Below, one piece after another: positions 45,755 to 58,118 of a DNA stretch of 64,000 nucleotides. The stretch comes from an uncultured delta proteobacterium (GTDB taxonomy: Bacteria; Desulfobacterota; Zymogenia; Zymogenales; Zymogenaceae), in NCBI GenBank assembly GCA_963792965.1, contig CAWBYW010000007.1, positions 448,001-512,000 of the forward strand, in the 5' to 3' direction. Below the pieces are notes generated by a model that was given only the letters and a program-made list of their open reading frames with translations, made no database searches and was not told the DNA's origin. The first letter of the stretch is position 1, and each line of letters opens with the position of its first letter. The position numbers and the translations under genes were made by a program.

Positions 45755-45782
45755 GACGGGAAGATGAACAAGGGGCCGGGTC
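45755..45782 (+). repeat. Imperfect direct repeat, copy 2
   Basis: GACGGGAAGATGAACAAGGGGCCGGGTC. Confidence 0.65.
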
Positions 45783-45817
45783 AGACGATACCGGTGATAC
45801 GCCTCGTGATCGGTATC

Positions 45818-46228
45818 TTAGTTATTATAGTATGAGTTGGAATACATGTTATCGTAGGCGTTATAATAGGCGTTGGAATAGGTATCGTCGTACGCGTTGG
45901 AGTACGCGTTGTAGTAGGCATTGTCGTATGAGTTAGTGTAGTAGGTCGAGTCCGAGTAGTCGTAGTAGGCGTCGGAATACGTATCAGAGTAGGTATCGGA
46001 GTATTTGTCATAATAGGCATCGGAGTAGACGTCACCGTAGGTGTCTGAGTACACGTCGGAATACGCGTCGGAGTAGAAACCCTGGGTGATGACGGCGCTC
46101 ACGCCGAGTGACCCGAGCAGCGCCGCCCCCTTGGCGATGCGTTTGAGGGCTTCGCGCCGGTTCAGCTTTTCATTCCCGACGGCGCCCTTCTCTTTGTCTT
46201 TGGTCGCTTTCTTCTCTTTGTCTTCCAC
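45818..46228 (-). CDS. Tat-like leader + Tyr-rich tetrapeptide-repeat protein (candidate RiPP precursor or secreted repeat peptide)
   Basis: GTG start with AGGA SD; LNRREALKRIA plus hydrophobic stretch; core of YxDx then YxNx repeats with synonymous codon variation; hairpin just downstream. Confidence 0.8.
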   Translation of the reverse strand: MEDKEKKATKDKEKGAVGNEKLNRREALKRIAKGAALLGSLGVSAVITQGFYSDAYSDVYSDTYGDVYSDAYYDKYSDTYSDTYSDAYYDYSDSTYYTNSYDNAYYNAYSNAYDDTYSNAYYNAYDNMYSNSYYNN

Positions 46229-46466
46229 TGTTCTTTCCTGGTGGCGTAATTTAGTAATTATGACGTACTGACCTGCCCCCGAGAACTACACCGGCGCCTC
46301 TGTCGGTCTATGGACATACGCTTCTCTTTGAACCACAGAATGTCGCGAGGTATAGTTTCGGGAGCAGGCACCCCCTTTGTCTGCCCCTTGAATGACAAGA
46401 CCGTAAAGCAAGGATGCTGTGTAACAGATAGGGCAGACTGCCAACTCGATCCGCGACGAGCCCGGA

Positions 46467-47097: not shown

Positions 47098-47942
47098 TCA
47101 ACTACTGAAAATAGTATAGCCGCTATTTTGTTGTTCCCACATTCTTAACGAAGAGTATAGGAGAGTGGAGGAGAAGCAGTTAGGATCATAGGCAATTCTG
47201 AGTGCTTTATCCAGTACTTCTAGATTTAGTTTCTTTGCTGTCCCAAACTTTTTTCTGAGCCCGATAAGGAGTAACTCCACTAAGTCATGTCCAACACAAG
47301 ACTGCAAACGGTCAAAATCCCTATCTAATAGATTTCTCAATTCATCCTCAAGATCTCTCGCATTTAAGCCGCAACTATCTGTCCTAGATATAACGACCAC
47401 AACCAATCTTCTAATATCTATATTGAGAGTCGACTTATCCGTAAAACTCTTGAATCTGAGGCCTTCAAACTTTAGCCCAAGATTTCTTTGCGACTCTGAG
47501 GAAATCCATCTTAACATGCCTATCGGAAAAGCAGCATTTAGAAGTGCGTTAAGCACAGGGACTTTTAACTTGTCTATCTTACTTCTAGAACCATGCTGAC
47601 GTAAGACTTCAGCAAGAGCTCTAGAAGCGATAAGCATTGTCTCCAAATCGTGATAGTCCGTGGAGAATACGTTATCGTTTTCAAATACAGTTCCTTCTAT
47701 CTTAGAAAAATCGGAGTCGATGATAACAATAATGCCTTTAACACCCATTTGTTTAAGAATATTATTAACTTCGAGCGCGGTTTCTTTGTTACACGCAATT
47801 TCGATAGCACACACATCCTCGTGAATAAACTTCCCGTATAGAAGCGCATCTGTATAACCCTCAACTATTATTATAGTCCAGCAAACACCTGACGTCTCTG
47901 CCATATCTTATTTACTATTCTATCTGGTTTTAGAGGATTCAT
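47098..47942 (-). CDS. DUF4435 / TOPRIM protein (PARIS AriB-like); one frameshift near 47877
   Basis: MNPLKPDRIVNKIWQRRQVFAG joins TIIIVEGYTD; IDSDF (DxD), HDLETML, GHDL; downstream of an ABC-type ATPase. Confidence 0.78.
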
Positions 47943-49281
47943 CTTTCTTCGGCCCCTTTAACACAACCGTTAGATCCGCCTATTACTTATTATGTCAGGC
48001 GAGTGCGTTGCTATCAGCACGTCGAAATTTGATAGTTCTATTGTCTGTTGAAGATCCCTAAGAAATCTTTCCTGCCATTCAACATGTAATGATAGTTCGG
48101 GCTCATCAATCAGAATCGCCGCGAGATTTTCCTCAAGTTCGAATAGTAGTCATTAGAAAATCTGGCTAGTTCGTTTGCTCACCGGAAGATAGATTCCCGA
48201 GCGGTATACGTTGTTATCTGGCCACCTGAAACAACGAAGCCATCCTTACTGTCTATTTTTAGTTTTGTATAAATAAACCGGCTATTAATAATATTCTTTA
48301 GACAGGCTTATTCTATTGTAGAGCTTCATCAAAAACGCTCAATTTTTCTCTTAATGTCTTCAACATGGATCTACAATACATCGCGATTTGTATCTTCTAA
48401 TTTCTTCAGTTCCTGGAAGTTTATCCCCTTCTCATCCTCTTCCAGAAGACCGACGTCGAACAAAAGTGAACGCTTTTGATTATTCTCCTCATATTTTGTC
48501 TCCATCTCATTTTCGTCGAGATCGGAGTTCCTATCTAGTCTCTTTACTAATCTTTTTGGAAAGCTACTATCGAGGAGTTGAGAACGAGAGGCATATTCCG
48601 CCAATGTAGATTGTATTCTCTTGGCAAGATTTCTTGAATAGACACTTACAGTTGAGAGTATCTTCACGCTGGATTCATCCTCTTCGCTCGCTCGCATTGA
48701 TCTAACTGTTCTCTGGGTATCAATGAATTTGACTTTTATGTCCTCCAAATTCATTAGCCATTCAGGTTTTGCGTGAGTCTCGTTTCTTTTGGAGGGAGGT
48801 AGTCCTAGTCTATTACCATAAACTTCGATGACTTCTTCTAATGAAAGGACTTTACCTGTATTTCTATTCCTCCAGGTGTCATAGGTTACTCTCATAAGTG
48901 CCGGGATTCTTTCTTCTATTGCTCTATAGATAAATCTCGTCGGGTAAGACGTTTCGCGAGTAAATACGTAAGGGCTCGGCCTCCGTTTCTTGCCTTTGCT
49001 ATCTGTACCATAGAATTCTAAACCGGCCCCTTTATCTGTGTCGTATTTACTCCTAACGGTAATTTGCTTTTATCATCAAATTCTAATATGAACTCTTTAA
49101 AGGGAATGCTTAATAATTCATGAAAGCGATTCTTACAAAGGGAATTTACCATTCTCAGTATGATAGTCTTACCAAACCCATTTGGACCAATAACGATAGT
49201 AATGTGCTCATTAGTATTCAGGCTAATGTTGTGGTTAAATATACCGAAGAGCTCGGTTACTTCTATTCTCGTTACCCTCAT
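47940..49281 (-). pseudogene. AAA_15/AAA_21-type ABC ATPase (PARIS AriA-like), fragmented by several frameshifts (artefact or decay)
   Basis: Walker A GPNGFGKT; LSSGEQ near 48180; ILIDEPELSLHVEWQ and IATHSPDII near 47990-48120. Confidence 0.75.
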
Positions 49282-49312
49282 CAGTAGTCTCCCCATCTAT
49301 TTAATAATGTAT

Positions 49313-56927: not shown

Positions 56928-58118
56928 CTACGTCGGCCGCCGTCCTATCTCTTCATCCGTCAGATAGCAGGCCGGGTCTGACGCCCAGGTATCCCCCGTC
57001 ATCGCCTCCGCCCGCGCCCGGAAGTTCCCGCCGCAGACATCGAGCCACCGACAGGAGGCACAGCGGCCCGTAACGTACTTCTTCTTTTCCTTGAGCCGTG
57101 CCATGAGAGGATTTGTGGTGTCCGTCCATATCTCGGAGAAGGGCCGTTTTCTGACGTTGCCGAAAGAGCGGCTTCGCCAGAACTGGTCGGCGTAGACCTC
57201 GCCGTCGAAGCTGACACACGAGATCCCGACGCCGGAGGAATTCCCCTGGTTCATCCTGAGGAGCTTGAGCGCCTCCTCGGCGCGCGCCGGGTTTTCCTTG
57301 GCGAGCCTGAGGTAGACATACGGGCCGTCGGCATGGTTATCCACCGTCAGCACCTCGGGCGCCCTGCCCTTTTCGAAGAGCCGCTTCGTTCGATCCATGA
57401 TCAGATCGACGGCCGCGCGCGTCTCGTCGTGAGACGGCAGCATCCGCAACATGGCCGTGCCCCTTCCCGTGACGACAAGGTGATAGAAACAGACGCGGGG
57501 GATCCCCTCGGCCTCCATCAGGTCGAAGATCGGGCCGATCTCGCCGATGTTGAGCCTGTTTACGGTGAAACGAAGCCCCACCTTGATCCCCTGCTTCATG
57601 CACTGCCTGACGCCTGCGATCGCCTTTTTAAAGGCACCGTCGACCTTGCGGAAGGAATCGTGGGTCGCCTCCAGACCGTCGAGGCTCACCCCCACGTATG
57701 AGAGGCCGAGGTCCGCCAGAAGTGCCGCCCGGTCCTCGGTGATGAGTGTCCCGTTGGTGGAAATCACCGCGCGGAGCCCGCGTTTCGCGGCATAGGCGAT
57801 CAGCTCCTCTATGTCCGGCCGTATCAACGGCTCTCCTCCCGAAAAGAGGATCACCGGCGCGCCGAAAGAGGCCAGATCGTCCACGAGCGTCTTGACCTCG
57901 TCGGCGGTAAGCTCCCCGGCATAGGTCCGGTTTTCCGAGTCGCTGTAGCAGTGGATGCACTTGAGGTTACAGCGTCGGGTGGCATTGAAGACCACGACCG
58001 GTTTTTTGTCCCGCGAAAATTGCAGGAGGTGCGACGGAAGACGATTCGACTCTCCCCCATACCTGAGGACGTCTGATTCCTCCACCGATCCCATATAGAG
58101 CTTTGAGATACCGATCAT
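56928..58118 (-). CDS. ahbC: Radical SAM/SPASM 12,18-didecarboxysiroheme deacetylase (AhbC/NirJ1)
   Basis: MIGISKLY...LRYG N-terminus, CNLKCIHCY, LTVDNHADG, CGGNFRARA, DPACYL; in the heme cluster. Confidence 0.88.
   Translation of the reverse strand: MIGISKLYMGSVEESDVLRYGGESNRLPSHLLQFSRDKKPVVVFNATRRCNLKCIHCYSDSENRTYAGELTADEVKTLVDDLASFGAPVILFSGGEPLIRPDIEELIAYAAKRGLRAVISTNGTLITEDRAALLADLGLSYVGVSLDGLEATHDSFRKVDGAFKKAIAGVRQCMKQGIKVGLRFTVNRLNIGEIGPIFDLMEAEGIPRVCFYHLVVTGRGTAMLRMLPSHDETRAAVDLIMDRTKRLFEKGRAPEVLTVDNHADGPYVYLRLAKENPARAEEALKLLRMNQGNSSGVGISCVSFDGEVYADQFWRSRSFGNVRKRPFSEIWTDTTNPLMARLKEKKKYVTGRCASCRWLDVCGGNFRARAEAMTGDTWASDPACYLTDEEIGRRPT

Follow-up and report, generated by a model that had tools for sequence, protein, structure and literature searches.

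In the window, which is the whole 64,000-nt stretch of DNA that was analysed and within which the feature coordinates are numbered, an open reading frame (ORF) on the minus strand at 45818..46228 encodes a small protein composed of a leader and a tyrosine-periodic core. No maturase gene stands beside it. This raises the question of whether the protein is the precursor of a peptide synthesized ribosomally and modified post-translationally (RiPP) that is matured in trans, as had been proposed in an earlier note on this DNA, and of which enzymes would act on it. We found that the gene is real and almost certainly an orphan member of a small undescribed family. Other members of this family precede a conserved radical S-adenosylmethionine (rSAM) module, which is also encoded in the genome of the window. 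The best explanation, which on balance we consider likely, is that the orphan precursor is matured in trans by this module, modified at Tyr-x-Asp/Asn, and then exported.

The ORF is intact and codes for 136 residues from a GTG start. The ORF list and the translation gave the same 51-residue leader (residues 1-51, ending in TQGF) and 85-residue core as first quoted. In an alignment of the paralogs, the GTG codon and the AGGAAAG sequence of the window coincide with the ATG starts and AGGAG-type sites of five clustered paralogs. When 30 leader codons were compared with those of every paralog, a small sample, synonymous change (pS 0.38-0.59) exceeded non-synonymous change (pN 0.18-0.35), with a dN/dS of 0.18-0.51; by this measure, the leader is under purifying selection. 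All the Tyr codons (27/27 TAY) are intact, each of them being one base change from a stop codon. In the ESM Atlas, the precursor was recognized poorly: its top match (0.90) was to an unnamed cluster, and the weak leads included a Cxxx-repeat rSAM target (0.85) and a twin-arginine translocation (Tat) signal domain (0.84). The AlphaFold2 fold, obtained with 38 sequences, had a mean predicted local distance difference test (pLDDT) value of 48.4, and the leader helix alone exceeded 70. This low-confidence model neither supports nor argues down the beta-solenoid or amyloid form that had been offered as an alternative. In another frame of the minus strand, a shadow ORF (45781-46035) reads the shifted Tyr repeats as a Thr/Pro/Ile-rich sequence. 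A database protein (P0091), in which the family leader is followed by a poly-Thr/Ile tail, probably reflects a frameshift in its source assembly.

The core contains 27 Tyr in 85 residues and no Cys, Pro, Arg or His. Two Tyr stand four residues apart 18 times, compared with 7.9 +/- 2.0 in shuffles of the core residues, and eight residues apart also 18 times, compared with 7.5 +/- 1.9. Asp or Asn occupies the second position after Tyr in 22/27 cases, which none of the shuffles reached (0/20000; mean 7.75, standard deviation 1.96, maximum 15). The first ten units have the layout Y-x-D-x and the last nine the layout x-Y-x-N, which gives an Asp-rich half followed by an Asn-rich half. These counts bear out the periodicity, the number of Tyr and the order of the two halves that had been read from the translation. 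The codons vary within the core (TAC 18 / TAT 9, GAC 10 / GAT 5, and four Ser codons), and Tandem Repeats Finder detected at the DNA level loose periods of 12, 24 and 36 nt with 61-75% matches. It is thus at the level of the protein that the pattern is maintained, in agreement with the earlier note.

The same unit was found throughout the family. Among 130 distinct family cores, the residue at Tyr+2 is Asn in 25%, Asp in 13% and Ser in 29% (N/D/S 67%), Gly at this position is depleted to 0.31 of background, and Tyr recurs at Tyr+3 in 53%. In the 60 cores that are poor in Asn and Asp, Ser occupies the +2 position in 54%. Judged from these counts, the family unit is Y-x-[N/D/S], mostly with period 3. 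The window copy has period 4 (Y-x-D/N-x), and so has the cluster-linked copy of locus L032 (Y-T/S-S-G/A). The unit fits the aromatic-x-x motif of the triceptides, a fit that does not prove the chemistry.

Six further copies were found in the genome to which the window belongs (3.36 Mb, 42 contigs, 88.85% complete); one lies 8 kb upstream of the window on the same contig, and five lie in tandem at C36:5086-8142. The cores of all seven copies vary, with a high content of Tyr, Asn, Asp and Ser. The fifth copy on contig C36 is directly followed by four co-directional genes. They code for a 343-aa rSAM protein, a 292-aa protein, a 692-aa protein in which an rSAM/SPASM domain is fused to a glycosyltransferase-9 (GT9) domain (PF01075, 1e-6), and Lgt; the first three genes overlap at their ends. 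Some paralogs (L008:5734-6189, L008:7033-7392) and the proteins P0006 and P0019 have long His/Asp/Glu/Arg-rich tails, e.g., RDRDSDHDRDRDRDRDHDRDR and EERGEHEEHEEHEGGERR, which look metal-binding, and the window copy is without such a tail.

The gene order is conserved. The 14 distinct clusters examined, which came from genome collections and all contain the 343-aa gene, were L008, L014, L015 and L032-L042 (L012 is the same place as L041, and L013 the same as L042). In the homologue search with inspection of neighbourhoods that the earlier note had suggested, homologues sit beside rSAM genes in 14/14 clusters. An ORF with the leader motif stands directly upstream of the 343-aa gene and then the 292-aa gene in all of them, and this ORF is Tyr-rich in 13/14. 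The exception is L035, where a 54-residue precursor keeps KRREALKRIS and has no hydrophobic stretch and only 3 Tyr. Since the motif is kept here without the hydrophobic stretch, it has a role beyond export. The module of this locus (L035:6842-9667, G371:C21) is itself a variant, in which the 292-aa protein is apparently fused to a GT9-like part (535-aa frame) and the anSME-like domain was not found. Among the 12 metagenome loci that were found via the leader motif, eight show the precursor followed immediately by the 343-aa gene, and the trio of precursor, 343-aa and 292-aa genes recurs in 8/8 informative contigs; the remaining four loci end within 300 bp downstream and are thus uninformative.

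One sample of 401 genomes from the window's phylum included 13 with the 292-aa protein, 11 with a match to the precursor profile and 9 with both, always adjacent; the sampled genomes are related to one another, and these co-occurrence counts overstate independence. In the four genomes that had the enzyme without a profile match, more divergent precursors are in fact present beside the enzymes. The two precursor-only genomes are 88-89% complete, and in one of them the precursor is located at the very end of a contig. The anSME-like enzyme and GT9 are present in most clusters, in some as separate genes, while L054 has no GT9 and L035 no anSME-like domain. Only in the window's own family is the module followed by the Lgt copy and by a convergent pilin-like gene. 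Because these parts vary, the constant core of the system is, as far as gene content tells, the precursor, the 343-aa rSAM enzyme and the 292-aa protein, which we read below as a pseudo-rSAM. In three related genomes, the cluster is accompanied by one orphan copy on another contig, and orphans are therefore a recurrent feature. The pilin-like gene at the end of the module, convergent to Lgt, encodes a 202-aa protein (L008:12996-13604, minus strand) with a weak match to the type IV pilin PilA (7.2e-7); its homologues occur in L038-L042, L047 and L052.

The family is rare and undescribed. The seven-paralog profile found 33 proteins among 5.8 billion clusters, all of them unnamed or "hypothetical", and the profile of the 292-aa protein found 51 among 5.8 billion clusters, with no Pfam domains on record. 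A broader 38-sequence profile retrieved 248 representatives at E <= 1e-3 and 26 at E <= 1e-10 among 1.84 billion. The 28 representatives that were inspected have the leader motif, an uncharged stretch, often with a classical lipobox, and a Tyr-periodic tail. The named records of members are those of uncultured "delta proteobacterium" and Candidatus Zymogenaceae metagenome-assembled genomes (MAGs) and of one Nitrospirae MAG. The family was not found in the full-text literature, a search that had subscription journals and supplements outside its reach. One protein (P0190, 220 aa) combines a family-like leader, a lipobox and a Tyr-rich region with an extra C-terminal domain of ~90 residues. A look-alike in a Muribaculaceae MAG (L016:4379-4738), with NRREALKRIAK, an uncharged stretch and a Tyr/Ser/Asn-rich tail, is an uncertain relative. 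Its start overlaps the end of an upstream 661-aa ORF, and a downstream 503-aa ORF was taken for a transposase from its translation alone.

In an alignment of the leader in 7 copies, R24, R25, E26, A27, K29, R30, A32, K33, G34, G39 and G42 are invariant. Of 38 family sequences, all have R24, A27 and R30, and at least 90% have R25, K29 and A32. The family leader motif was accordingly written as R-R-E/D-A-L/M/I-K-R-I/M-A followed by an uncharged stretch. The window protein carries every invariant leader residue and is matched by the precursor profile at 2.4e-26. Its RREALKRIAKGAAL occurs unchanged in a precursor that a cluster of another genome encodes (L041:11836-12159), so the handle of the orphan lies within the range served by the module.

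The motif is more conserved than export needs and survives in L035; for this reason, holding by the enzymes was tested by complex prediction. Three chains, the 343-aa protein, the 292-aa protein and precursor residues 18-80, were modelled with alignments of our own. The complex score was 0.78 (median of three runs), compared with 0.00 for the best of 3 controls, two with the partner replaced and one with the 343-aa chain replaced. At least 31% of contacts are shared between the runs, and the partner has a pLDDT of 39-42. On the precursor, the confident contacts involve residues 22-36, and the conserved LNRREALKRIAKGAA segment is placed between both conserved enzymes. On the 343-aa protein, the contact residues are 35-36, 39, 46, 251, 266-269 and 271, among which Y39, S266, F268 and E269 are invariant or nearly so. 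On the 292-aa protein, they are 138-139, 142-143, 146-148, 271, 274-275 and 278, with D139 and Y143 invariant or nearly so. The prediction supports a clamp of the twin-arginine helix by the enzyme pair.

The enzymes of the module were compared with known families. The 343-aa protein has an invariant CxxxCxxC motif and seven further invariant Cys in its C-terminal half; its best PDB match is PqqE, over residues 6-87 only. The 292-aa protein had no sequence match in Pfam, NCBIfam or PDB. Its structural model has a pLDDT of 84.8, and the closest structures are ChlB, CteB, anSME, PqqE and SuiB, with template modelling (TM) scores of 0.5-0.58. The protein is without CxxxCxxC and keeps four invariant C-terminal Cys. 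From this model, we read it as a catalytically dead rSAM/SPASM paralog (pseudo-rSAM). The NCBIfam matches of the 692-aa protein are DynA (4e-41), anSME (7.5e-38), DarE (4e-28), AmcB (7.8e-24), GrrM/OscB (3.6e-23), YhhB (3.6e-21) and FxsB (9.4e-16). In bits, DynA reaches 141.2 against a curated cut-off of 450 and anSME 130.5 against 349. For the cyclophane synthases, the bits and cut-offs are 84.3/425 (AmcB), 82.2/310 (GrrM/OscB), 75.5/445 (YhhB), 57.8/370 (FxsB) and 38.6/450 (XyeB). The PDB matches of this enzyme are anSME 4k36 (6e-18) and the cyclophane synthase ChlB (2.6e-8). The sole PDB match of its GT9 domain was heptosyltransferase II at E 0.29, and the GT9 assignment rests on PF01075. 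The proposal of a RiPP precursor matured in trans gained strong genomic support from paralogs with the same leader upstream of rSAM genes, a linkage in every cluster examined and a family-wide Y-x-D/N. Membership in the XyeB, GrrM or FxsB families, which the earlier note had named, found no support, since every such NCBIfam model scores far below its cut-off, and the universally linked enzyme is a different one, a compact rSAM with a pseudo-rSAM.

Export was considered from the same leader. The Tat consensus is S/T-R-R-x-F-L-K, and the window motif N-R-R-E-A-L-K fits it in the twin arginine, L and K. The motif is followed by 13 uncharged residues (35-47), which would form the h-region, and then by T-Q-G with Thr at -3 and Gly at -1; a signal peptidase may cleave near this TQG. 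A TatC is encoded in the window's genome at C9:214954-215655 (254 bits), while tblastn with this TatC across 57 loci revealed no Tat genes beside the module. Many relatives end the uncharged stretch with a classical lipobox (L-x-x-C-like), for example LTITGC in cluster-linked L054 and SLTGC in P0034. A Tat-like reading of the leader is plausible because of the twin arginine with its uncharged stretch, the genomic TatC and the lipobox Cys in many relatives. The earlier note had made the same reading; these three features speak for it, whereas the lack of a Tat-signal profile match and the Ala in place of Phe do not. The twin arginine is also predicted to contact the enzymes, and its conservation is therefore no proof of Tat use. 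Export of some kind is strongly suggested, because relatives end the same stretch in a lipobox.

The paralogs and the window copy would differ in their fate after export. In 5/6 paralogs, the stretch is followed by Q-[DG]-[EQ]-C (in one, QDQC), which is not a canonical lipobox. The window protein is without any Cys and hence without a lipobox. Three Lgt copies are encoded in the window's genome (263, 218 and 156 bits), and that of the module (L008:12218-12985, G000:C36) is the most divergent. This third Lgt follows the module in all examined clusters of the window's own family, whose precursors have Q-[DG]-E-C behind the hydrophobic stretch, and may perhaps be a dedicated lipidation enzyme. 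The clustered paralogs with Q-[DG]-E-C may be lipid-anchored, and the Cys-free window copy would be released as a soluble peptide.

The course of events that we propose is as follows. The 136-residue precursor would be made in the cytoplasm, where its conserved helix LNRREALKRIAKG would be clamped between the 343-aa rSAM enzyme and its dead 292-aa partner, both encoded on C36. The 343-aa and 692-aa rSAM enzymes would then modify the repeated Tyr-x-Asp/Asn units; that the window copy is modified in trans seems probable to us. Our best guess for the chemistry is a triceptide-like cross-link of Tyr to the residue two positions on, possibly followed by glycosylation by GT9. This specific cross-link is offered tentatively, as a possibility rather than an expectation. 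Release of the leader would free the twin-arginine signal, and the rigid product would be exported, probably by Tat, with the signal cut near TQG. Since the twin arginine would lie hidden under the enzymes, modification could act as a gate to export, by analogy with the Tat proofreading chaperones.

Several observations weigh against this explanation. There is no maturase gene near the window copy, and we therefore only infer service in trans. The orphan is located in a low-GC island (low in guanine plus cytosine) and could be a recent arrival or a decaying copy. It also differs from the clustered paralogs in having period 4 instead of 3, in being Asp-rich and in being without Q-[DG]-E-C. The exact protein is absent from a 15-billion-protein collection, which means that gene callers had not called the gene with this start. 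At E up to 10, the precursor had no match in Pfam or NCBIfam, which extends to Tat-signal models if they are part of these libraries; such short models are insensitive. In the Tat motif, Ala replaces the usual Phe, and there is no A-x-A cleavage site. The predicted clamp is no demonstration of binding, and the calibration of the tool, in which the mark was reached by 58/80 solved complexes and 2/110 mismatched pairs, holds only roughly for three chains and own alignments. Resemblance of the universally linked 343-aa enzyme to known families is limited to its first 100 residues, so that more than one chemistry is conceivable, and for the 692-aa enzyme every named cyclophane-synthase model is far below its cut-off. 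Finally, no 343-aa homologue was found at E <= 1e-10 in the Muribaculaceae assembly of L016; Tyr-repeat proteins with such a leader can therefore exist without the module.

The system was compared with those known from the literature. In the triceptides, the motif is Omega1-X2-X3, and a bond links the ring to the beta-carbon of the third residue, according to PMC12912966, whose reference list names ChlB as a multiple cyclophane synthase. For the precursor MicA, that source gives three motifs, whereas the window peptide has ~20 units. Our module has in common with the triceptide systems (XyeB, GrrM/OscB, FxsB, YhhB, AmcB, ChlB, MicB) the repeated aromatic-x-x units and, in the proposed course, the action of one enzyme at several sites. 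The 692-aa enzyme is anSME-like, has no N-terminal RRE (RiPP recognition element) domain and matches triceptide-maturase models at E 1e-10 to 1e-24, but all of these models remain far below their cut-offs (GrrM/OscB 82 vs 310). Triceptide systems are without the second compact rSAM and the pseudo-rSAM of this module, and their leaders differ from the family leader, which looks like an export signal. The GT9 fusion, the lack of a linked dedicated protease and the position of the window copy away from the enzymes are further differences. To our knowledge, other triceptide precursors, like MicA, carry only few motifs.

The HXS antiphage system has two rSAM enzymes, one of which is paired with an accessory protein, and its effector has a signal peptide and tripeptide repeats, matures in the cytoplasm and acts in the periplasm, as stated in PMC13128918. 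The likeness to our module concerns the two rSAM enzymes, the accessory pair partner, the putative repeat substrate with its signal-like leader and, as proposed, maturation in the cytoplasm before action in the periplasm. The repeats described there are H-x-S and five in number, whereas here they are Y-x-N/D/S and ~20, with no peptidoglycan-binding domain and a core without His. The models also differ in score: HxsB reaches 57.4 bits against a cut-off of 370 and HxsC 19.9 against 267.9, HxsD has no match, and the 292-aa protein matches no model.

The enzyme anSME acts in the cytoplasm on a protein bearing an export signal, at the substrate motif C/S-x-P/A-x-R. Our system resembles it in the best PDB match of the 692-aa enzyme (4k36, 6e-18) and in a proposed substrate with an export-signal-like leader, but the substrate motif is impossible in the window core and the score of 130.5 bits falls short of the cut-off (349). 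Among the NCBIfam models, DynA matches the 692-aa enzyme best (4e-41, residues 4-346), and DarE and DynA are cross-linkers of aromatic side chains in ribosomal peptides. They differ in score (141 vs the cut-off of 450), in their short single-core precursors without a Tat-like leader and in having no second rSAM; their motifs are of the W-x-W type, and nothing similar occurs in the window peptide. The Cys-repeat rSAM targets (the Cys-every-fifth peptides of CefA/CefB and the Cys-Xaa-Xaa-Xaa family) show the same kind of fixed short period (4 or 5) and are served by rSAM/SPASM enzymes, and CefB is among the NCBIfam matches of the module proteins. The repeated residue there is Cys, not Tyr, the similarity scores are weak, and no leader is shared. 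The Tat proofreading chaperones TorD, DmsD and NapD bind the signal while the cargo is finished. The twin arginine with its uncharged stretch and a cytoplasmic protein predicted to hold the signal are similar here, while the predicted binder is a pair of modifying enzymes and there are extra basic residues (RIAK) before the hydrophobic stretch. The closest system is that of the triceptides in likely chemistry, HXS in architecture and anSME among the solved enzymes. By the model scores, the module belongs to none of these three, because every one of them is far below its cut-off.

Among the alternatives, the one that survives best is that the window protein is a substrate of the module but undergoes a different reaction. 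This could be Tyr-Tyr biaryl or ether linkage, splicease-like excision of tyramine, beta-hydroxylation or oxidation of Ser, Asp or Asn, or mainly glycosylation by GT9. The match of the 343-aa enzyme to known families over the rSAM core only, the similar scores of the 692-aa enzyme for the oxidase anSME (130.5 bits) and the cross-linker DynA (141.2 bits), the recurrence of Tyr at +3 or +4, which would suit Tyr-Tyr links, and the fusion of the GT9 domain to the enzyme in most clusters are in agreement with it. Against it, the strong constraint of Tyr+2 to N/D/S with depletion of Gly fits a reaction on the beta-carbon of the +2 residue. The splicease motif x-Y-G occurs in the core only once, and the anSME motif C/S-x-P/A-x-R is impossible because the core has no Cys, Pro or Arg. 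As a whole, we consider a different reaction less likely than not.

It is improbable, in our opinion, that the window protein is an unmodified family member, that is, an exported, disordered Tyr/Asp/Asn-rich peptide of the envelope or matrix (adhesive, metal-binding or self-assembling) that escaped or never needed the module. Against this, the orphan retains the full set of invariant leader residues, predicted enzyme contacts included. The lack of an adjacent maturase would suit it, but the complete module is encoded in the window's genome. Period 4, a composition unlike that of the clustered paralogs and the loss of the Cys motif would suit it as well, but a period-4 Tyr core stands right beside the module in L032. 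The Muribaculaceae look-alike, in whose genome no 343-aa homologue was found, is a point in its favour, as is the fact that the gene context is known for a minority of the 248 broad-profile representatives. The motif itself, conserved beyond the needs of export and surviving in L035 without a hydrophobic stretch, weighs against this reading as well.

A non-functional relic, meaning a decaying duplicate on a mobile low-GC island that is no longer expressed, is very improbable. The island with its broken defence pair, the GTG start and the absence of the protein with this start from the protein collection are what one would expect of it, but against it stand an unbroken frame of 136 codons, 27 of them stop-prone Tyr codons, a conserved ribosome-binding site, an excess of synonymous over non-synonymous change in the leader, and repeat codons that have diverged under a preserved protein pattern. 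Least credible of all is a leader that serves as a maturase-recognition helix only, with a cytoplasmic product that could, for example, yield a redox cofactor derived from Tyr in the way that PqqA yields pyrroloquinoline quinone (PQQ): the predicted burial of the twin-arginine motif in the enzyme clamp, the motif of L035 without a hydrophobic stretch and the PqqE match of the 343-aa protein (residues 6-87 only) are outweighed by the 13-residue uncharged stretch after the motif in nearly all members, its ending in many of them in a classical lipobox Cys, an export signature, the possibly dedicated Lgt copy after the module in the window's own family, and the lack of linked protease or cofactor-tailoring genes.

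The surroundings of the orphan were analysed in addition to the module, and the features are collected in the table below. The statement that no maturase is adjacent was correct: the only SPASM gene of the window (56928-58118) lies 11 kb away. This gene was rejected as a candidate maturase for its distance and its position beside ORFs read, from translations only, as haem-synthesis genes. None of the 11 window neighbours (0/11) has a homologue in loci L010-L016, and the genomic place of the orphan is therefore not conserved. The low-GC island that holds it extends over ~45.0-49.4 kb (GC 0.35-0.52 vs 0.57 for the contig). The AriB homologue and the AriA-like fragments of this island look like a broken PARIS-like defence pair. 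The second orphan of the genome, L009:9496-9921, is encoded a short way upstream of the window, and 295 bp separate it from a PD-Lambda-5 pair that is apparently intact (A 3.3e-97, B 2.4e-110); the region of both is L009:6887-9921, which equals G000:C7:436887-439921. Both orphans of the window's genome thus abut defence genes (AriB and PD-Lambda-5), and those of the three related genomes lie among ORFs that were read, from the starts of their translations only, as metabolic genes. For the module as such there is no PADLOC model, and the matches were limited to weak viperin-like rSAM ones. An association of the orphans with defence is a weak lead.

Table. Features of the orphan precursor gene and of the island around it (window coordinates).
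Feature	Position	Strand	Remark
Whole precursor gene	45818..46228	-	136 codons + stop codon 45818-45820; orphan member of the Tyr-repeat family
Ribosome-binding site AGGAAAG	46233..46239	-	4 nt upstream of the GTG start (46226-46228)
N-region, residues 1-21	46166..46228	-	Lys/Glu/Asp-rich; little conservation in the paralog alignment
Twin-arginine motif, residues 22-34, LNRREALKRIAKG	46127..46165	-	conserved leader core; predicted docking segment for the maturase pair
Uncharged hydrophobic stretch, residues 35-47, AALLGSLGVSAVI	46088..46126	-	read as signal-peptide h-region
TQGF, residues 48-51	46076..46087	-	TQG kept in most paralogs; possible signal-peptidase I site
Core, residues 52-136	45821..46075	-	~20 units, Y-x-D-x then Y-x-N-x, 27 Tyr; presumed modification site
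Unassigned membrane protein, 164 aa	45223-45717		low-GC island
AriB/DUF4435 homologue	47098-47904		PADLOC 2.5e-22; low-GC island
AriA-like AAA ATPase pieces	48371-48895 and 49018-49296		low-GC island

A wider view of the family can be sketched, which is speculative and which we consider improbable. The precursors could form a class of envelope peptides whose export signal is at the same time the handle of an rSAM/pseudo-rSAM clamp, so that modification would be coupled with Tat export and the pair would act as a proofreading chaperone. The ~20 units would become a rigid ladder of cross-linked rings, serving as a periplasmic or lipid-anchored barrier or as a redox or metal scaffold, perhaps as an anti-phage gatekeeper as in HXS. 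New enzyme chemistry and rigid macrocyclic scaffolds come in large part from peptides modified by rSAM enzymes. To these, the family would add substrates with ~20 evenly spaced Tyr sites, a two-enzyme module that includes a dead rSAM paralog, and a glycosyltransferase fused to an rSAM enzyme. It would also add a leader that doubles as an export signal, which would allow the ordering of cytoplasmic modification and Tat or lipoprotein export to be studied. The window gene itself indicates that the genes of such precursors and of their enzymes can lie far apart, in which case cluster-based genome mining would miss the precursors.

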